Below are positions 20,497-57,811 of a stretch of 64,000 bases of DNA, piece by piece (within the stretch, counting starts at the first letter, position 1; every line of letters starts with the position of its first letter). Source of the DNA: an uncultured Chloroflexia bacterium (GTDB lineage: Bacteria > Chloroflexota > Limnocylindria > Limnocylindrales > CSP1-4); contig CAVVNQ010000010.1 of NCBI GenBank assembly GCA_963749705.1, positions 32,001 through 96,000 of the forward strand, in the 5' to 3' direction. Under the pieces are notes generated by a model that worked only from the letters and a program-made list of their open reading frames with translations, was not told the DNA's origin and searched no databases. The position numbers and the translations under genes are program-made.

Positions 20497-20586
20497 CCCG
20501 TCGGGCTCGTGGCCGCGTGGGGGAGCCCGCCGGGCCCAGGACCGCGCGGCGAGCCCGCCGCCGTGCTGGTGGTAGGATCGCGGGCA

Positions 20587-20750
20587 GAGCCTTCGGGGCA
20601 GGGTGCGAATCCCGACCGGTGGTAGGGTCCCGCGACGCGGGACGAGCCCACGAGCGGCTCCACGGGCGCAGGCCCGGGGAGTGCAGCAGATCCGAGGCGA
20701 GGGTCACCTCGCCCGCCGGAGCCGACGGTACAGTCCGGATGAGAGAAGGC
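20587..20750 (+). ncRNA. FMN (RFN) riboswitch
   Basis: CTTCGGGGCAGGGTG..ATCCCGACCGGTGGTA...AGCCCACGAGC...AGATCC...GGAGCCGACGGTACAGTCCGGATGAGAGAAG, upstream of an ABC transporter. Confidence 0.9.
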
Positions 20751-20830
20751 CAGGGCCGGCACGTCCCGCCCGGGATCGTGCTCGAGCGCCTCCTGCCCCG
20801 TTGCGACACGAATCGTGACGGAGGTGGCGA

Positions 20831-25374: not shown

Positions 25375-25449
25375 GGGCCCGTAGCTCAGTGGCAGAGCAG
25401 GGGACTTTTAATCCTCCGGTCCTGGGTTCGAATCCCAGCGGGCTCACCA
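25375..25449 (+). tRNA. tRNA-Lys (TTT)
   Basis: GGGCCCG/CGGGCTC acceptor stem, anticodon loop CTTTTAA, GGTTCGAATCC T-arm, encoded CCA. Confidence 0.96.
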
Positions 25450-30509: not shown

Positions 30510-30584
30510 CGCGGGGTGGAGCAGCGGCAGCTCGTCGGGCTCATAACCCGAAGGTCGGAGGTTCGAATCCTTCCCCCGCAACCA
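30510..30584 (+). tRNA. Initiator tRNA-fMet (CAT)
   Basis: C1:A72 mismatch, GGG/CCC anticodon stem, CTCATAA loop, encoded CCA. Confidence 0.96.
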
Positions 30585-39699: not shown

Positions 39700-41322
39700 T
39701 CAGTGATCCGCGACCCGGCCGTGCCGGGCATCGAACACCGGGCGCTCCGAGCGGATCTCGGGCAGGTGGTCGAAGTTGTACGGGGGCGGCGGCGACGAGG
39801 TCGCCCATTCGAGCGTGTTCGCTCCCCACGGGTCGTCGCCGGCGATCTTGCCGCTGCGCAGCGAGACCAGCACGTTCCAGAAGAACGGCAGCATGCTGGT
39901 GGCGATGACGAACCCGCCGATGGTCGCCGCGAGGTTGAGCTCGCTCCAGCCCGCGTTGGCCGCGTAGTCGGCGATCCGCCGCGGCATCCCGGCCAGGCCC
40001 AGCTGGTGCATCGGGAAGAACGTCAGGTTGAAGCCCACGAACATGAGCACGAACTGGATCTTGCCCAGCGTCTCGTCGAGCATCCGGCCGGTCATCTTGG
40101 GGAACCAGTAGTAGATCCCGGCGAACACCCCGAACACGGAGCCGCCGAACAGCACGTAGTGCAGGTGCGCGACCACCCAGTAGGTGTCGTGGAGCGCAAA
40201 GTCCACCGGTACCGCCGCCGAGAACGCGCCGTTGAGGCCACCGATCAGGAACAGCGTCAGGAAGCCGATCGCGAACAGGAGCGGGGTCGCGAAGGTGAGC
40301 TTGCCCCGCCACAGGGTCGCGATCCAGTTGAACATCTTGACGCCCGTCGGGACGGCGATCAGGAACGTCATCAGGCTGAAGAACGGCAGGAACACCGAGC
40401 CCGTGGTGAACATGTGGTGGGCCCACACCGAGAAGCCGAGGGCGCCGATGCCGACCGTCGCGAACACGAACGCCTTGTAGCCGAACAGCGGCTTGCGCGA
40501 GAAGACGGGCAGCACCTCGGACACGATGCCCATCGCGGGCAGGATCATGATGTAGACCGCCGGGTGCGAGTAGAACCAGAACACGTTCTGGTACAGGACC
40601 GCCTGGCCGCCGTTCGCCGGATCGAAGAAGTTGCCGCCGTAGTTGCGGTCGATGAACAGCATGATCAGGGCGCTGGTGAGCACCGGCGTCGCCATCAGCA
40701 CGAGCACGCTCGTGACGAGCACCGTCCACACCAGGATCGGCATCCGGAACAGGGTCATGCCCGGCGCCCGCATCTTGAAGATCGTGACCAGGAAGTTGAC
40801 CGCGCCCAGGATGGAGCTGGTCCCGATCAGGGTGAGCCCCACGATCCACAGGTCCGTGCCCGCTCCGTTGAACTTCGCACCGGCCAGGGGCGGGTACTCC
40901 GTCCAGCCGGACGCCGCGGCGCCGCCCGAAGCGAGGAAGCCCGAGGCCATCAGGGCGCCACCCAGCGGCAGCAGCCAGAACGACAGCGCGTTGATCCGCG
41001 GGAACGCCATGTCCGGCGCCCCGATCTGGAGCGGGACGGCGTAGTTCCCGAACCCCGCCAGGATCGGGATGATGAACAGGAACAGCATGAACGAGGCGTG
41101 CATCGTGAACGCCTGGTTGTAGAACGACTCGCTCACGAGCTGCATCCCGGGCTGGGCGAGCTCGAGCCGGACGACCAGCGCGAGGATCCCTCCGGCCAGG
41201 AAGAACAGGATCGAGTTGACCAGGTACATGATCCCGATCTTCTTGTGATCGGTGGTCGTCAGCCATGCGTACAGGCCGCTTCGATAGGCTGGAGCGGCGG
41301 GGTTGAGGGTCGTCGTGGCCAT
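39700..41322 (-). CDS. ctaD: Cytochrome c oxidase subunit I, type A2
   Basis: TDHKKIG, AFPRIN, YSHPAVY, WAHHMF, VAHLHY, GMPRR. Confidence 0.97.
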   Translation of the reverse strand: MATTTLNPAAPAYRSGLYAWLTTTDHKKIGIMYLVNSILFFLAGGILALVVRLELAQPGMQLVSESFYNQAFTMHASFMLFLFIIPILAGFGNYAVPLQIGAPDMAFPRINALSFWLLPLGGALMASGFLASGGAAASGWTEYPPLAGAKFNGAGTDLWIVGLTLIGTSSILGAVNFLVTIFKMRAPGMTLFRMPILVWTVLVTSVLVLMATPVLTSALIMLFIDRNYGGNFFDPANGGQAVLYQNVFWFYSHPAVYIMILPAMGIVSEVLPVFSRKPLFGYKAFVFATVGIGALGFSVWAHHMFTTGSVFLPFFSLMTFLIAVPTGVKMFNWIATLWRGKLTFATPLLFAIGFLTLFLIGGLNGAFSAAVPVDFALHDTYWVVAHLHYVLFGGSVFGVFAGIYYWFPKMTGRMLDETLGKIQFVLMFVGFNLTFFPMHQLGLAGMPRRIADYAANAGWSELNLAATIGGFVIATSMLPFFWNVLVSLRSGKIAGDDPWGANTLEWATSSPPPPYNFDHLPEIRSERPVFDARHGRVADH

Positions 41323-41332
41323 CCCTGTTCCC

Positions 41333-42463
41333 TTACTGGACCGTGAGCGTGCCGGTCATGTTCGGATGAACGGTGCACTGGAAGGTGTAGGTGCCAGCCG
41401 TGAGGGCCGGGACGGAATAGTTGGTATCCGACGGGCCGGTGATGATGTCGCCCTTGAACGCGACCTTGCCGCTCCCGTCCTTGATCTCGACATCGTGCGG
41501 GACGCTGGCGTCGTCGTTCTTGAAATGGATCGTGAACGGCTGGCCGGCCGGCGCCTGGAGATCGCCCGTCGAGAACGCGATGTTCTGCGCGGCGAGCTCG
41601 ACCACGGGTCCCTCGGCGGCGCCCGACGCGGCCGGCGCCGGCGTCGCGCTCGCCGCCTCGATCTGCTGCTGGAGCCAGGTGTCGAAGTCCGCCTTCGGGA
41701 TCGCGTGGACGTCGAACACCATCGAGCCGTGGAACGGGCCGCACAGCTCCGCGCACTGACCTCGATACGTGCCGGCCTCATCCACGGTGAAGTCGAACGT
41801 GTTCGTCTTGCCCGGGATCACGTCCCGCTTGAACAGGAACTTGGGGACGTAGAACGCGTGGATCACGTCCAGGCTGCGGAGGCTCACCTGGACGGGCTCG
41901 CCCACGGGCAGGAACAGGCCGCCGGTGTCGCCCACCGGAAGCGCCTGCGAGAACAGCACCTTGGCATCGGGGCCATCGGGCCCGTCGAGGTAGTCGAACG
42001 ACCACTGGAACCGCGCGGCGACCGCGCGCACGTAGATGTCGCTGGGCGTCTTCGCATCGACCGTGTTGAGGGTCTGCCACGACATCACGAACAGGAACGC
42101 GACGATGACCGTCGGGATCGCGGTCCAGATGATCTCGACCAGGTTGTTGCCGTGGATCTGCGGCGGCAGCTCATCGTCGCCCGGCTTGCGTCGATAGCGG
42201 AAGACCGTGAACACGATCACGCCTTCGACCAGGATGAAGATCGCGGCCGCGATATAGAACACGATGTCGTACAGGGACTTGGTGCTGTGCGATCGATCGG
42301 TGACCCCGTCACCGCCGGCCACCGGGAAGAAGCTGTCCCAGACCCCGGACAGCGTCGCGCCCGACGCGTACAGGACGATCACGGCGACCGCGATGGCCAA
42401 CAGGATGAGCAGTCCGGCAACAAGGGCGCCGGACCCGGTCCTCGACCGGGGGGGCATCGACAT
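41333..42463 (-). CDS. ctaC: Cytochrome c oxidase subunit II with C-terminal cupredoxin fusion
   Basis: EIIWT, DVIHAF, CAELCGPFHGSM CuA site, then PHD...CTVHPNM; no CxxCH. Confidence 0.95.
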   Translation of the reverse strand: MSMPPRSRTGSGALVAGLLILLAIAVAVIVLYASGATLSGVWDSFFPVAGGDGVTDRSHSTKSLYDIVFYIAAAIFILVEGVIVFTVFRYRRKPGDDELPPQIHGNNLVEIIWTAIPTVIVAFLFVMSWQTLNTVDAKTPSDIYVRAVAARFQWSFDYLDGPDGPDAKVLFSQALPVGDTGGLFLPVGEPVQVSLRSLDVIHAFYVPKFLFKRDVIPGKTNTFDFTVDEAGTYRGQCAELCGPFHGSMVFDVHAIPKADFDTWLQQQIEAASATPAPAASGAAEGPVVELAAQNIAFSTGDLQAPAGQPFTIHFKNDDASVPHDVEIKDGSGKVAFKGDIITGPSDTNYSVPALTAGTYTFQCTVHPNMTGTLTVQ

Positions 42464-44801: not shown

Positions 44802-45142
44802 CGACGTGGGACGGCGCGCTGGCACTCGATGCACAGGGCGGCCCAGGGCAGCGCGTCGAGCCGCTGTTCACCGACGGCCCGGTGGCACGAGGTGCAGCGT
44901 CCGAAGGTGCCGGCCTCGAGGCGCTCGAGGGCGGCCTCGACGGCCGCCAGGTGCTGCTCGTTGCGATCGCGCAGGGCGAGATCGCGCTGCTGGTCGACGA
45001 CGTGGCTGGCCGCCGCGGCCTGCGAGCCGTAGGTCATCGGGCCCGGCGCCTCGATCCGGAGCTCCCTGAGCTCGCCGACGACCCGGGCCCGCTCGGCCAG
45101 GAGCGCGGCGCGGCGGTCGGCGATGGTGGTCGGATCGTCCAT
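44798..45142 (-). CDS. TraR/DksA C4-type zinc finger protein
   Basis: ALERLEAGTFGRCTSC...RLDALPWAALCIEC. Confidence 0.88.
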   Translation of the reverse strand: MDDPTTIADRRAALLAERARVVGELRELRIEAPGPMTYGSQAAAASHVVDQQRDLALRDRNEQHLAAVEAALERLEAGTFGRCTSCHRAVGEQRLDALPWAALCIECQRAVPRR

Positions 45143-45260
45143 GGTGGCCGATGCTACAACCCGGCCGTCCGCACGGTGGAGGGCCGTTCGGCCGATCCAT
45201 TCGGGCTGCGGTAGCCTCGATGCCAGCATCGACAACCGACTGAACCCACTGGAGATCGCG

Positions 45261-45434
45261 ATGGCCATCGTCAAGGACCCTGTATGCGGCATGGACGTCG
45301 ACACCGAGACGTCGCAGCTGTCGCTGGAGCACGACGGCAAGACCTACTGGTTCTGCGGCAAGGGCTGCCTGCTCGAGTTCAAGGACGATCCCGAGAAGTA
45401 CCTCGATCCGGCGTACGAACCCCAGGGCATGTGA
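45261..45434 (+). CDS. YHS domain protein
   Basis: KDPVCGM...GKTYWFCGKGC...F..DPEKY; GGAG SD. Confidence 0.88.
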   Translation: MAIVKDPVCGMDVDTETSQLSLEHDGKTYWFCGKGCLLEFKDDPEKYLDPAYEPQGM

Positions 45435-45464: not shown

Positions 45465-47252
45465 ATGTGCGGTGTCTTTGGCTACGTCACGAACCGGGAC
45501 GTGGCTCTCGGGCCGATCCTGGTCGAGGCCGCCCAGCGGCTCACCTACCGCGGCTACGACTCGGTGGGAGCCGCCACCTTCCGCGACGGCGCGATCGACC
45601 TGCGCAAGGACGTCGGCAAGGTGGATGCGGTGGCCGAGCGCCACGGCCTGCGCGAGATGCGTGGCAGCCGCGGGATCACGCAGCTGCGCTGGGCCACCTT
45701 CGGCGAGCCGTCGCCGCGCAACGCCCAGCCGCACCTCGACTCGGACGGCGGGATGTGCGGCGCCCACAACGGCAACGTGGTCAACAACCTCGAGCTGATG
45801 GCCGAGTTCACGGCCGAGGGCATGACCGTCCGCTCCGAGAATGACGGCGAGACCTGCGTCCACGCGGTGGAGCGCTACCTCCGGCGCGGCGAGGCGCCCA
45901 TCGACGCGATCCGCCATGCCTACGACGACCTCGCGGGCGACTACGCCTTCGTCATCGGCCGGGCGCAGGACGATCGCCTGTACGCGTTCAAGAAGGGCTC
46001 GGGGATGGTCGTCGGCATCGGCGACGGCTTCACCTGCGTGTCGTCGGACCTGCCGTCGATCCTGCCCCTCACCCGGCGTGTCGTTCGTCCGCGCGACGGC
46101 GAGATCGTGACGCTGTGGGCGGACCGTGTCGAGGTCCGCTCGGTCGCGGACGGGGGCCTCGTCGACCGACCGGTCGAGCTCGTCACCGAGACCATGGAGG
46201 CGGCCCAGAAGGGTGGCTACCCACACTTCATGGCCAAGGAGATCCACGAGCAGCCGCAGGTCGCTCGCGAGCTGCTCCACCTGCTCGACGCGAGCGCCGA
46301 TGTCGCGCCGCTCGTGGAGCAGATGCGGAGCGCGCGCAATCTCTTCCTCGTCGCCTGTGGCACCAGCTACCACGCAGCGATGCTCGGCTCGGTATACCTC
46401 GCGCAGCTCGCCGGGCGCGTGGCGATCCCGGTCCTCGCGCCCCAGTTCATCGCCCAGTACGCCCCGGGGGTCGGGCCGGGCGACGTTGGCATCTTCGTGA
46501 GCCAATCGGGCGAGACCAAGGACGTGCTCAACGCGCTCGAGGCAGCGGAGCGCCGGGGGATGACCAGCTTCGGCCTGGCCAACGTCGTCGGCTCGGCGCT
46601 GACGCGCGAGACGCGCCTGTGCCTGCCGCTGGGCTGCGGCTTCGAGATCAGCGTGCCGGCCACCAAGACGTTCACCAACCAGGTGATCGCGTTCCTGTAC
46701 CTCGCCCATCGGCTGGCGGAGCGCGACCTGGCGCCGCTCGCGAGCGTTCCGGACCTGATCGAGGCGACGATCGCGTCAGTTGCGGCGCAGGTCGAGGCCC
46801 TCGCGGCCGAGCTGGCCGACCACGACGATCTCTACTGCCTCGGCTACGGAGCCACCTACCCCATCGCGCTCGAGGGCGCCCTCAAGCTCAAGGAGGTCAC
46901 CTACGCCCACTGCGAGGGGATGCTTTCGACCGAGTTCAAGCATGGACCCCTGTCTGCCGTGAGCGCGGGCTACCCGATCCTGTTCGCGGCCGGCCCCGAC
47001 GACGTCCAGCTCATCGTCAGCGGCATCAACGAGGTCAGGGTGCGCGGGGCGCGGACGATCACGATCGCCCAGGAGGATGCGCGCCTCCGTGCCAACGGCG
47101 ACGACCTGATCCCGCTCCCGGCCGCCGACCCCCAGGTGACCGCGCTGCTCGCCGTGCTGCCGCTCCAGCTGCTCGCGTACCACATGAGCGTGCTGCGCGG
47201 CTTCGACCCCGATTTCCCGCGCAACCTGTCCAAGACGCTGACCGTCGACTGA
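45465..47252 (+). CDS. glmS: Glutamine--fructose-6-phosphate transaminase (divergent)
   Basis: MCG start, YRGYDS, HNG, SQSGET, EGALKLKE, KHGP, PRNLSK. Confidence 0.9.
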   Translation: MCGVFGYVTNRDVALGPILVEAAQRLTYRGYDSVGAATFRDGAIDLRKDVGKVDAVAERHGLREMRGSRGITQLRWATFGEPSPRNAQPHLDSDGGMCGAHNGNVVNNLELMAEFTAEGMTVRSENDGETCVHAVERYLRRGEAPIDAIRHAYDDLAGDYAFVIGRAQDDRLYAFKKGSGMVVGIGDGFTCVSSDLPSILPLTRRVVRPRDGEIVTLWADRVEVRSVADGGLVDRPVELVTETMEAAQKGGYPHFMAKEIHEQPQVARELLHLLDASADVAPLVEQMRSARNLFLVACGTSYHAAMLGSVYLAQLAGRVAIPVLAPQFIAQYAPGVGPGDVGIFVSQSGETKDVLNALEAAERRGMTSFGLANVVGSALTRETRLCLPLGCGFEISVPATKTFTNQVIAFLYLAHRLAERDLAPLASVPDLIEATIASVAAQVEALAAELADHDDLYCLGYGATYPIALEGALKLKEVTYAHCEGMLSTEFKHGPLSAVSAGYPILFAAGPDDVQLIVSGINEVRVRGARTITIAQEDARLRANGDDLIPLPAADPQVTALLAVLPLQLLAYHMSVLRGFDPDFPRNLSKTLTVD

Positions 47253-47433
47253 CGGCGGCGGCAGGCGGACCCGAGACCGGCGACCCTGGCACATTCGAGC
47301 AACGGTCCAGCACGCGTAAGTCGCAGATAAGCGGCGCGCGCGATGCTGCCAGCCCGCACCCATCGATCGGGCACTCCTCGGAGGGATCGGCGCGTGCGGT
47401 CGATGCCTGGCCCGCCGGGTGGAGGTTGTGCCC

Positions 47434-47532
47434 ATGGACGCCGTTGTGCGCCGTGTCCTCGCCGTCCGAATTGGTGCGCCGGCGCTCGCGCTCGCGCTGG
47501 CCGTCCTCATCGAGGGAGCCAAGCGATGGTGA
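47434..47532 (+). CDS. 32-aa hydrophobic peptide ending GAKRW (copy 1)
   Basis: GGAGG SD; MDAVVRRVLAVRIGAPALALALAVLIEGAKRW-stop; similar peptide at 57518-57616. Confidence 0.65.
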   Translation: MDAVVRRVLAVRIGAPALALALAVLIEGAKRW

Positions 47533-47625
47533 CCGCCAGTCCTGACCTGGGTCGCTGCGAGCACGGCCGCCGCTGGTAGCCCGGCGCCATCGCTCGGGCT
47601 CGGGCCCGCCGCCGGTGTCCCCGGA

Positions 47626-48423
47626 TCAGCCGCGCCCGCCCGCGATCGCACCGCCGTCGGACGTGATCCGCGAGGCGAGGTAGACCGGGATCACGGACAG
47701 CAGGATCGCGACCATCCCGGCGACGTTCACCAGCGGAACCTGGTTGGCGAGCCGGAAGCTCTGGAAGATCCAGATCGGGAGCGTCCGGGTCCCGCCAGCG
47801 GTGAAGATCGTCACGATCACCTCGTCGAAGGAGAGGGCGAACGCCAGCAGGCCGCCGGCGATCAGCGCGCTGCGGATCGCGGGAAACGTGATCTTGCGGA
47901 AGGTCATGAACGTGTCCGCGCCCAGGTCCGCGGACGCCTCCTCGAACGAGCGCGAGACCCGCCGCAGTCGGGCGATCACGTTGTTGTAGACGAGCACGAT
48001 GCAGAACGTCCCGTGGCCGACCACGATCGCCGCCATGCCCAGCGGAAAGCCCACCGTCGCGAACGTCGTGCTGAGCGCCATCCCGGTCACGATCCCGGGC
48101 AGCGCGATCGGGAAGATGACGACGAACGAGATGGTCTCGCGACCGAAGAACCGATACCGGGCCACCGCGAGCGCCGCCAGCGTCCCCAGCACGAGCGCGA
48201 TCGCCGTGGCGCCCAGGGCGACGGTCACCGACGTCATGAACGCCTCGCGCAGGCCGGTGTTCGCCAGCGCATCGAGCAACCAGGTCGTCGTGAACCCGGA
48301 CGGCGGCCACGCGGACGTGCCGCTCGAGTTGAACGCATAGACGACGACCAGCAGCAGCGGCACGTAGATGAACGCGAGCACGAGGGCGGTGATCGAGCGG
48401 AGCAGGAACCTTGCCGCCATCAC
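47626..48423 (-). CDS. potC: Polyamine ABC permease
   Basis: FEEASADLGA, SFDEVIVT, TLPIWI. Confidence 0.88.
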   Translation of the reverse strand: MMAARFLLRSITALVLAFIYVPLLLVVVYAFNSSGTSAWPPSGFTTTWLLDALANTGLREAFMTSVTVALGATAIALVLGTLAALAVARYRFFGRETISFVVIFPIALPGIVTGMALSTTFATVGFPLGMAAIVVGHGTFCIVLVYNNVIARLRRVSRSFEEASADLGADTFMTFRKITFPAIRSALIAGGLLAFALSFDEVIVTIFTAGGTRTLPIWIFQSFRLANQVPLVNVAGMVAILLSVIPVYLASRITSDGGAIAGGRG

Positions 48424-57465: not shown

Positions 57466-57493
57466 GAGCCGCCGGGTGGGCCCCCGGCGGCTC
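57466..57493. terminator. Hairpin between convergent proline dehydrogenase and peptide genes
   Basis: GAGCCGCCGGG-TGGGCC-CCCGGCGGCTC. Confidence 0.65.
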
Positions 57494-57517
57494 AGGCCTC
57501 GGCGGTGAGGCGGATGG

Positions 57518-57616
57518 CTACCAGCGCTTGGCGCCGTTGATCACGAAGGCGAACGCGGCGAGGCTGCCGAGGAAGAGGGTGGCGCGGTGCGCGTACCACT
57601 TGAGCGTGGGCTTCAT
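57518..57616 (-). CDS. 32-aa hydrophobic peptide ending GAKRW (copy 2)
   Basis: AAAGGA SD; MKPTLKWYAHRATLFLGSLAAFAFVINGAKRW-stop; GC-ending codons; downstream hairpin. Confidence 0.75.
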   Translation of the reverse strand: MKPTLKWYAHRATLFLGSLAAFAFVINGAKRW

Positions 57617-57811
57617 GATGTTTCCTTTTCCCATGAGTGCGAGGTGGGCCCCTCGCGAGGAGGGATCCGAACGTACGCGCTCCGCGGTACCAGGAGGAAT
57701 GACCCGTTGGTACTGGTACCCACTCGCCTTAAGGCGGAGTTGCGGCGCCGCACCACGTCCGGGCGGGCCGGCGGGGAACCGTGACGCTGCTCCAGGTGGA
57801 CCGATCGCGAC

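Follow-up and report, generated by a model that had tools for sequence, protein, structure and literature searches.

The stretch of DNA analysed here, called the window throughout, comprises 64,000 nucleotides from an uncultured Chloroflexia bacterium (C10:32001-96000 of the assembly labelled G000, with 3.6 Mb in 22 contigs and 71.5% G+C) and carries two genes for micro-proteins of 32 residues that share the ending GAKRW. The first of them, copy 1, is found in a 373-bp gap between the end of a glmS-like open reading frame (ORF; 45465-47252, 595 residues with glutamine-amidotransferase (GATase) and SIS domains by Pfam) and the end, at 47626, of a convergent ABC-permease ORF. The second, copy 2, is a paralog on the minus strand. 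A further short frame, ORF2, overlaps the 3' end of copy 1. The coding features and their ribosome-binding sites are the following:

47421-47425, plus strand: GGAGG, the Shine-Dalgarno (SD) sequence of ORF1, with an 8-nt spacer to the ATG; SD-like in 18/18 copy-1-type loci
47434-47532, plus strand: copy 1 (ORF1), ATG at 47434 and TGA at 47530-47532, 32 codons as read from the sequence; product MDAVVRRVLAVRIGAPALALALAVLIEGAKRW
47512-47518, plus strand: SD-like GAGGGAG inside ORF1, 7 nt before the ATG of ORF2
47526-47579, plus strand: ORF2, 17 codons, stop TAG at 47577-47579; product MVTASPDLGRCEHGRRW
57518-57616, minus strand: copy 2, 32 residues, tail as in copy 1; product MKPTLKWYAHRATLFLGSLAAFAFVINGAKRW
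57620-57627, minus strand: SD-like AAGGAAAC before copy 2; SD-like in 36/36 copy-2-type loci

A first-pass annotation of this DNA had proposed a 32-residue ORF with a GGAGG behind glmS and had noted its likeness to the peptide at 57518 in length and in the GAKRW-stop ending. Translation reproduces the quoted peptide, and a second 32-codon ORF with the same tail is indeed present. The remark that the N-terminal halves of the two are unalignable is fair as well, since in a profile-profile comparison the alignment is confined to the C-terminal 18 columns. In the copy 1 peptide, a basic N-terminus leads into a hydrophobic helix, which is followed by the tail EGAKRW, and the best 15-residue Kyte-Doolittle means are 2.13 for copy 1 and 2.25 for copy 2. 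All 32 codons of copy 2 end in G or C. The assembly contains 52,053 stop-to-stop frames with 25 or more residues, and two of them end in GAKRW, namely copies 1 and 2, while 0.02 would be expected from positional residue frequencies. The looser pattern G-x-[KR]-[KR]-W, which had been recommended as a check, recovers both copies among 16 frames, and the other 14 are arginine-rich off-frame products without a hydrophobic stretch. Pfam-A and NCBIfam returned no family at E<=10 for copy 1, for copy 2, for a 37-residue GTG form or for the types A and B described below.

Conservation within the genus leaves us with little doubt that the copy 1 ORF is a real protein-coding gene. At E<=1e-3, a search with the copy 2 peptide alone found matches in 21 of 24 genomes of the same genus, and a profile of both paralogs found them in 23 of 24 at E<=0.01 (genome counts are here and below draws of related, non-independent genomes). 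Copy 1 is more divergent, and a single-sequence search with it reaches E<=0.1 in 8 of the 24. ORFs of its type, which end in GAKRW plus 0-2 residues, were identified at 12 of 20 fetched loci, and six further genomes brought the set to 18 loci; together with 36 copy-2-type loci, all within the genus, they form the ortholog sets used here. Start codon, frame, stop codon and SD spacing are preserved in all 54 loci examined. In the alignment of 36 copy-2 DNA sequences, indels inside the ORF measure 3 or 6 nt, while those in the flanks have any length. The tail of the orthologs follows the pattern [DE]-[GAS]-[AG]-[KR]-R-W. Its R-W is invariant, as are the A-K-R-W columns of the copy-1-type alignment (A6), and the codons around them vary synonymously (Gly GGC/GGG/GGA/GGT, Ala GCC/GCG/GCT/GCA, Asp GAC/GAT, Glu GAG/GAA, Lys AAG/AAA). 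Thus, with 32 codons, a GGAGG, SD-like motifs in the orthologs and a kept frame, copy 1 presents the short conserved ORF with a ribosome-binding site that is expected of a small membrane protein gene. The hydrophobic segment has only 15-17 residues, so that association in the plane of the membrane is also possible. Gene order is conserved at both loci. Copy 1 lies between a YHS-domain or DksA-like gene and an ABC importer, and copy 2 is convergent with proline dehydrogenase in 18 of 20 loci and has a GAF-HisKA-HATPase kinase (Pfam) upstream in 14 of 20; in the window it stands just downstream of the kinase. Neither copy 1 (with ORF2) nor copy 2 is followed by a gene on the same strand, the convergent ABC permease and the convergent proline dehydrogenase taking that place. 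The glmS-like gene beside copy 1 was matched only in this genome among 12 copy-1 loci compared, and in the others the YHS or DksA-like genes directly adjoin the micro-ORF.

Copy 1 and ORF2 are predicted to form a micro-operon of two cistrons, with copy 1 in first place. The ATG of ORF2 sits within CG-ATG-G, that is, in the R-W codons of ORF1 (ATGGTGA overlap), and an ATG ORF of 17-20 codons that ends in (G/A)RRW-stop is present in 16 of 18 copy-1-type loci; in one of the exceptions the ATG is lost and the other extends 5 codons beyond the motif. The orthologs of ORF2 differ in length and in the N-terminal part, and their arginine codons vary synonymously. The product ends in CEHGRRW, and EHGRRW closely resembles the EAGRRW tail of family members from other genera. 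It has no hydrophobic segment (Kyte-Doolittle mean -0.59). Retention of the tail by this soluble product suggests an independent recognition of the tail. The overlap also offers a reason for two codon choices in ORF1. The glycine codon is the rare GGA in 13/18 copy-1 loci, compared with 4/25 glycine codons at the same position in copy-2 loci, and is likely kept because it is part of the SD-like GAGGGAG of ORF2; the arginine codon before the tryptophan is CGA in 17/18 loci and is likely kept because it contains the start of ORF2.

Members of the family have ~30-36 residues. The N-terminus is basic, a single hydrophobic helix (~15-17 residues, many of them small) comes next, and then there is a nearly invariant tail, [D/E]-[G/A/S]-[A/G]-[K/R/Q]-R-W, followed by 0-3 residues. 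The helix is kept in every copy-1, copy-2, type A and type B member, and the architecture persists in other genera although the DNA differs widely. Type B, found in other genera, has the consensus MKxxxKxQAFRVLLALxALASSALVLEAG(R/K/Q)RW plus 0-3 residues. It is often preceded on the same strand, at 0-10 nt or with an overlap in GTGA, by type A (VKANLARFTWALxLLASMALSxGAGMRW..), and the two types match over the full length in hhalign (95.4%, E=1.8e-8). The copy-1 type (A6) matches type B (A5) in the last 18 columns (91.8%, E=7e-7) and type A (A7) at 5.7% (E=0.0067); an unrelated hydrophobic micro-ORF family, taken as control, reached 1.9% (E=0.026) against type B and 0.2% (E=0.26) against the copy-1 type. 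By the same figures, 5.7% versus 91.8%, an identity of ORF1 with the type A first cistron was ruled out. A HMMER scan of 1.84 billion representatives yielded 37 clusters at E<=1e-3, 36 of them with the tail, and 13 public clusters of 31-38 residues carry the label 'hypothetical protein' or no name. The nearest named records (L080, L081) belong to 'uncultured Chloroflexia bacterium' assemblies, in which the neighbouring kinase is 94% identical. Matches span only two taxonomic families, f1 and f4, of one Chloroflexota class: a class-level draw of 401 genomes gave 60/137 in f1 and 10/153 in f4 against 0/92 in f3, 0/16 in f2 and 0/2 in f5, and a phylum-level draw of 401 genomes gave 8/23 in f1, 1/16 in f4 and 0/361 in 80 other families, where draws are samples searched with one short profile and no match does not equal absence. 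Each genome has 1-3 family places. The idea of a dispersed micro-peptide family with its C-terminus under selection, put forward on the two window copies, therefore holds well: additional members exist in 23 of 24 same-genus genomes and in f1 and f4, the frame is conserved, R-W does not vary while adjoining codons change synonymously, and indels in the ORF are multiples of three. The literature on 'GAKRW' gave only unrelated antimicrobial-peptide work. The family is unnamed and without a curated model; new here are the bicistronic arrangement of copy 1 with the overlapping 17-codon ORF2 and the riboswitches that precede members in other genera.

The genomic context of relatives connects the family with cyclic di-GMP (c-di-GMP) signalling. 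We fetched 20 loci from other genera, picked by peptide score, and 14 of them have, immediately before the micro-ORF or micro-ORFs, a riboswitch that reaches the Rfam gathering score, 11 of the type c-di-GMP-I-GGC (RF03167) and 3 of the type c-di-GMP-I (RF01051). At most of the six loci that lack a riboswitch, the micro-ORF converges with proline dehydrogenase, as copy 2 does. Recurrent upstream genes in relatives encode DUF5317, a multi-helix protein of ~185 residues, and GAF-GGDEF-EAL proteins (Pfam); further neighbours typed in other genera are DinB, S9 peptidase (convergent in 8/22 loci), 4-hydroxyphenylpyruvate dioxygenase (HPPD)-like, pyrroline-5-carboxylate (P5C) reductase and thiamine pyrophosphate (TPP) enzyme genes. 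In one draw of 151 f1 genomes, matches to the riboswitch model were present in 106, to the peptide profile in 71 and to DUF5317 in 146 (these counts include the unpublished genome G248, and the DUF5317 search also G599; no claim is based on those alone). At least 47 of 113 micro-ORF places in this draw have a riboswitch on the same strand within 350 nt upstream, 2/12 within the genus, namely the third copies of G059 and G104, and 45/101 outside it, and at least 47 of 113 have a DUF5317 gene on the same strand within 1.3 kb upstream. As 47 riboswitch and 126 DUF5317 matches lie beyond those listed, the true figures may be higher in both cases. Behind the riboswitch, the first ORF typically lies at a distance of 26-62 nt and the second at 115-156 nt. 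Seen from the riboswitch, a family member follows in 37 of the 150 matches listed, and among the 30 best-scoring loci, 28 have sequence downstream of the riboswitch, which in 17 of these is followed by a hydrophobic ORF of 28-41 codons. Riboswitch-linked and riboswitch-free paralogs occur within one genome, for example in G055, G129 and G104. To our knowledge, the c-di-GMP-I-GGC variant is without a validated ligand. The literature that we found on it consists of passing mentions, and the main text of PMC5737381 has no passage on the variant; for DUF5317 a literature search found nothing.

Several observations on these elements stand beside the family itself. The sole DUF5317 match in the genome of the window lies on another contig (C5:16900-20343, L180), where it heads a 673-residue frame, counted to the end of the locus, that runs into a many-helix transporter-like region and adjoins an ORF resembling an HD-GYP-type phosphodiesterase, a motif read by eye in the translation and not by Pfam. 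The two c-di-GMP-I-GGC riboswitches of this genome (C4:311944-312018 and C10:147484-147558; L181, L182) are outside the window and precede ORFs for membrane proteins that start with MFWDGTRWI and a hydrophobic helix, not family micro-ORFs. One of these ORFs has 83 residues and the other 452, with Pro/Thr-rich linkers and a weak hit to a pectate-lyase-like adhesive domain; starts of the form MxxW(D/T)GxxW behind the riboswitch were seen elsewhere in 3/30 loci. A third family member was not found near the DUF5317 gene or the riboswitches of this genome. In addition, of the 30 best-scoring loci of the c-di-GMP-I-GGC riboswitch, 15 have behind it a member of a second family of hydrophobic micro-ORFs (31-36 residues); all 15 are of the same taxonomic family (L186, L195, L197-L201, L204-L207, L209, L211, L212 and L214). 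The consensus of this second family, ..R..(hydrophobic)..ALAG(V/S)AS(A/F)(H/R)x, is signal-peptide-like and has no match in Pfam or NCBIfam, and a relationship to the GAKRW family was ruled out by hhalign (1.9% and 0.2%).

We propose that the family consists of single-helix membrane micro-proteins that constitute an output of cyclic-dinucleotide signalling and have the conserved tail as their functional surface, and we consider this compound reading of sequence and context reasonably probable. The peptide would insert in the membrane as a single helix, and its basic tail with the tryptophan would be placed at the membrane-water boundary for contact with a specific partner. It might thereby serve as a small regulatory subunit that regulates or completes a membrane protein, for which DUF5317 is the best candidate. 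The second messenger would set the expression of the riboswitch-linked copies, while riboswitch-less paralogs, such as copies 1 and 2, may place the same function under other regulators or inputs. Of the three functions that had been offered for the peptides at first, the context thus favours a membrane regulator linked to signalling, because of the c-di-GMP riboswitches, the DUF5317 and GGDEF-EAL genes and the nearby GAF kinase, and it is less favourable to a toxin or an exported peptide. A further-reaching picture is tentative and as a whole rather doubtful. In it, E/D-x-G-[K/R]-R-W would be a portable recognition tag, carried by membrane-anchored peptides (copy 1, copy 2 and types A and B) and by the soluble ORF2; the family and the second micro-ORF family would be the main output of c-di-GMP-I-GGC riboswitches in Chloroflexota, so that the second messenger would work largely via tiny membrane peptides; these might dock on membrane proteins of the DUF5317 type or bind the nucleotide themselves, and ORF2 could be a soluble competitor at the docking site.

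A number of observations weigh against the role in signalling that we propose. Rfam identified no riboswitch at copy 1 or copy 2, neither at the gathering score nor at E<=10, and a DUF5317 neighbour is absent at both copies in the window, so that the link to signalling is borrowed from relatives. Even there, among the matches listed, about half of the micro-ORF places have neither a riboswitch nor DUF5317 nearby. The ratio of nonsynonymous to synonymous polymorphism (pN/pS) over the whole ORF is not low, at 0.52 for 19 copy-2 and 0.80 for 12 copy-1 sequences, and outside the tail clear constraint concerns composition only, the N-terminal and hydrophobic parts keeping their character but not their sequence. 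Positive charge is found at both ends of the peptide, and the membrane topology is consequently not obvious. The arginine codon that precedes the tryptophan is CGC in all 36 copy-2 orthologs, which hints at an added constraint at the nucleotide level that our model leaves unexplained. The model likewise gives no explanation for the skew in stop codons behind the tail: copy 2 ends in TAG 22, TAA 8 and TGA 6 times (n=36) and ORF2 in TAG or TAA in 16/16 loci, compared with 941 TGA, 490 TAG and 21 TAA among the long ORFs of the genome. Finally, the lineage is known solely from metagenome assemblies, and a search of sequencing runs for the locus returned no RNA run that contains it; five soil-metagenome DNA runs contain at most 0.37 of its sampled words.

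If the window copies are under regulators other than a riboswitch, the flanks of both genes contain conserved elements that may serve this purpose:

47316-47336, plus strand: tandem (G/A)TAAG-N5-6-(A/G/C)TAAG boxes, in 17/18 copy-1-type loci by regular expression
47342-47347, plus strand: -10-like GATGCT (A at position 2, T at position 6); (G/C)AnnnT follows the boxes in 17/18 loci
47364-47389, plus strand: leader block CGATCGGGCACTCCTCGGAGGGATCG, which includes GGGCACTCCTC; GGGCA(C/A)..GGAGG in 14/18 copy-1-type loci
57696-57734, minus strand: upstream blocks CCTTAAGG .. GGTACCAGTACC .. GGGTCATTCC of copy 2; GTAC and GGG..AT invariant or nearly so in 36 sequences
57670-57675, minus strand: -10-like TACGTT of copy 2; T, A and the final T invariant in 36 sequences
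57639-57656, minus strand: 5'-leader hairpin GCGAGG-GGCCCA-CCTCGC of copy 2; folds in most of 35 orthologs
57466-57507, minus strand: 3' element of copy 2, terminator-like: CACCGCCGAGGCC, then the hairpin GAGCCGCCGGG-GGCCCA-CCCGGCGGCTC, then TTGGATT

The tandem TAAG boxes are a candidate regulator site or promoter-upstream element, and the blocks upstream of copy 2 are candidate regulator sites upstream of the -35 region. Consensus scans for sigma-70 promoters and terminators on both strands of both loci called nothing; they missed the sense promoter and may not fit this phylum. The labels promoter and terminator therefore rest on conservation, and the 3' element of copy 2 escaped the terminator scan because its T-tract is too weak. 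GGGYYAT-N18-26-TAnnnT is present in 35/36 copy-2 loci, and the arrangement GTACC..GGGYCAT..TAnnnT was recognised by eye at riboswitch-less loci of other genera and also upstream of the riboswitch in L174 and L064. The upstream words said to be shared by the two copies stand as parts of separate elements, with GGGCACTCCTC in the copy 1 leader block (14/18 loci) and GGGTCATTCC in the copy 2 block (GGGYYAT..TAnnnT, 35/36), but GCGCGTGCGGTCGAT is not conserved among copy-1 orthologs and a homology between the two upstream regions is not supported; the blocks that hold GGGCACTCCTC and GGGTCATTCC have different positions relative to the -10-like element. The copy 1 leader block and the copy 2 arrangement each occur once in the genome. 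The only Rfam match to the leader block at E<=10 is a 12-bit rydB fragment, and the idea that it is a decayed riboswitch is unsupported, as no relevant match was found at that threshold. A regulon governed by the upstream boxes was not supported either, since whole-genome motif searches gave only partial look-alikes on contig C3. Two of these, possibly there by chance, lie ~5 kb apart (C3:639258-639272, plus strand, and C3:644730-644745, minus strand), resemble the copy 2 and the copy 1 boxes and precede a small Cys-rich Zn-ribbon-like ORF and a ComEA-like ORF.

The stems of the 5'-leader hairpin differ between orthologs (for example TAGGG/CCCTA and CTGCAGGA/TCCTGCAG), and the mean z-score against shuffled sequences is just -1.08. 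The 3' hairpin shows compensatory changes (CG->UA in 5, GC->AU in 3 and CG->UA in 1 of 36 sequences), and the 3' element is evidently non-coding because its distance from the stop codon is not a multiple of three. Its parts, the 13-nt CACCGCCGAGGCC (57495-57507) and the hairpin (57466-57493) on the minus strand, are more conserved than the N-terminal half of the copy 2 ORF, and the loop GGCCCA(C) is common to the 3' and the 5'-leader hairpin; the element could be a small RNA derived from the 3' untranslated region or a protein-binding site. Weak Rfam hits at copy 2 (Rhizobiales-2, mir-383 and sR23) were taken as chance; the Rhizobiales-2 match (57466-57553, minus strand) covers the 3' hairpin and the end of the ORF with 28 bits, against a gathering score of 40, and E=0.26. 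The box GGTACCAGTACC (57709-57720, minus strand) is complementary to the CUGGUA at the end of the copy 2 ORF (57518-57526). RNAalifold gave 5 pairs between them, in which the changes, found in 6-7 of 36 sequences, are all one-sided and preserve a G-U pair; the arginine codon with the invariant CGC lies in this part of the ORF. The box is upstream of the -10-like element and not preserved in other genera, and the idea of a pairing was dropped as unexplained.

The Pfam-typed genes of the window near the two copies are the YHS, DksA-like, glmS-like, ABC importer, proline dehydrogenase, GAF kinase and YetF-like genes. The gene for a YHS metal-binding domain (45123-45434) adjoins copy 1, and ORF2 has a conserved Cys-x-His, so that a connection to metal might be imagined, as pure speculation. 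Cytochrome oxidase subunits I and II, the latter with an extra cupredoxin domain, are encoded at 39700-42463, ~5 kb from copy 1. Elsewhere in the window there are a flavin mononucleotide (FMN) riboswitch (20585-20754, 67.5 bits against a gathering score of 66.2) and tRNA genes at 25375-25446 and 30510-30581.

Among the alternatives to a signalling output, a type I toxin survives best, although we regard it as unlikely. The peptide would then damage or depolarise the membrane, an antisense or leader RNA would restrain it, and the leader and the 3' elements would control its translation. The proteins Hok, Ldr, TisB, Fst and Ibs are alike in size, in a single hydrophobic helix with a charged or aromatic C-terminal tail, in multicopy or tandem genes and in structured leaders, all of which can be said of these 32-residue peptides: they are multicopy and at times tandem, form stand-alone transcription units outside operons of larger genes, have a narrow taxonomic range and, at copy 2, a structured and conserved leader and a highly conserved 3' element. 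The likeness ends with a location that is stably syntenic, in the genus as a whole as well as in several others, and with a riboswitch control and a linkage to DUF5317, GGDEF-EAL and other signalling genes that suit a signalling output better than an addiction module. A pore or toxin also has no need of the tail on a soluble companion such as ORF2. Consensus scans of both strands revealed no antisense promoter, but they may not fit this phylum and missed the sense promoter as well. In the C. difficile family to which we compare the peptides below, an antisense RNA is described to silence one of the riboswitch-less paralogs, a point in favour of the toxin (PMC13724677).

An exported or processed peptide, that is, a pheromone, a precursor of a ribosomally synthesised and post-translationally modified peptide (RiPP) or a product similar to a signal peptide, is somewhat more improbable still. 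The layout of basic N-region, hydrophobic core and short conserved C-terminal piece does resemble a signal peptide, the hydrophobic part being the export leader and the tail the released or modified product; tandem copies exist, the same riboswitch also precedes secreted proteins and the second, signal-peptide-like micro-ORF family, and modified peptides commonly have C-terminal cores that contain tryptophan. However, the product released by a cut before K/R-R-W would measure merely 3 residues, and Asp or Glu would occupy the -3 position of this cut, which is unfit for signal peptidase I. Pfam found no recurrent peptidase, modifying-enzyme, export or receptor genes adjoining the loci, and ORF2 bears the tail without an export-like segment. 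That the ending ..G-[KR]-R-W-stop acts solely inside the ribosome, as an arrest peptide or modulator of termination with no later role, is less probable again. Such a cis element would account for the strict conservation of only the last 5-6 residues while the remainder drifts, for the stop codon skew and the invariant CGC, and for the same ending in ORF2, which would fit entirely in the exit tunnel. Yet both copies face convergent genes and have no downstream gene in the same orientation to regulate, an arrest peptide has no need of a maintained hydrophobic helix, and no arrest motif is known to resemble the tail. That the frames are no genes at all but a by-product of conserved non-coding DNA or RNA (a promoter, terminator or small RNA) is hardly credible, for in spite of the spurious long frames frequent in GC-rich genomes, the strongly conserved non-coding blocks in the flanks and the overall pN/pS of 0.5-0.8, start, SD spacing, frame and stop are kept in 54/54 loci, indels respect the frame, the tail is held through synonymous changes, members from other genera keep the architecture on divergent DNA and 2 frames were found where 0.02 were expected.

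Small subunits of the kind that we propose for the GAKRW family have precedents. MgrB, AcrZ, KdpF, MgtS and CydX are enterobacterial proteins of less than 50 residues with one transmembrane helix that work by attaching to larger proteins of the membrane, for instance sensor kinases, transporters or oxidases; their genes are often missed by annotation and usually lie in or beside the operon of the partner. The family shares with them the size, the single helix and the gap in annotation, but has no sequence relationship to them (no hit in Pfam or NCBIfam at E<=10), and its gene is a separate unit whose nearest recurrent neighbour, DUF5317, is uncharacterised. By layout, and with no homology claimed, the closest described analogue is the CD1980.2 family of C. 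difficile. This family is described as membrane-associated proteins of 58-60 residues, with five paralogs behind c-di-GMP-I riboswitches and three riboswitch-less paralogs with sites for the RgaR two-component system; the proteins promote sporulation, their partner is not identified, homologues outside C. difficile are not reported, and a role of small membrane proteins behind c-di-GMP riboswitches in this species was shown only in 2026 (PMC13724677). Both are multicopy families of small hydrophobic proteins that annotation has overlooked, with several paralogs behind class I c-di-GMP riboswitches and others that are riboswitch-free; an RgaR site there would correspond to the histidine-kinase neighbour and the conserved upstream boxes of copy 2 here. 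The same mix of paralogs is found in the family described here, in which the RF03167 and RF01051 aptamers precede members in relatives at the gathering score but neither copy in the window. There are differences as well. The C. difficile proteins are predicted to form a four-helix bundle with a C-terminal hydrophobic helix, compared with 30-36 residues, one helix and the K/R-R-W tail here; they belong to Bacillota and not Chloroflexota and have sporulation as output; the riboswitch in our case is mostly of the GGC variant model, and the overlap of ORF1 and ORF2 is without counterpart.

Thus, an unannotated family of micro-proteins and an overlapping companion gene are added to a phylum that is known almost only from metagenomes. 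Micro-ORFs behind riboswitches escape standard annotation, and the family offers a concrete target for the c-di-GMP-I-GGC variant riboswitch, a poorly understood class. DUF5317, an uncharacterised family of membrane proteins present in 146 of 151 sampled genomes, gains a partner that can be tested. An unrelated family in Chloroflexota with the same regulatory layout as that of C. difficile suggests that this design recurs.

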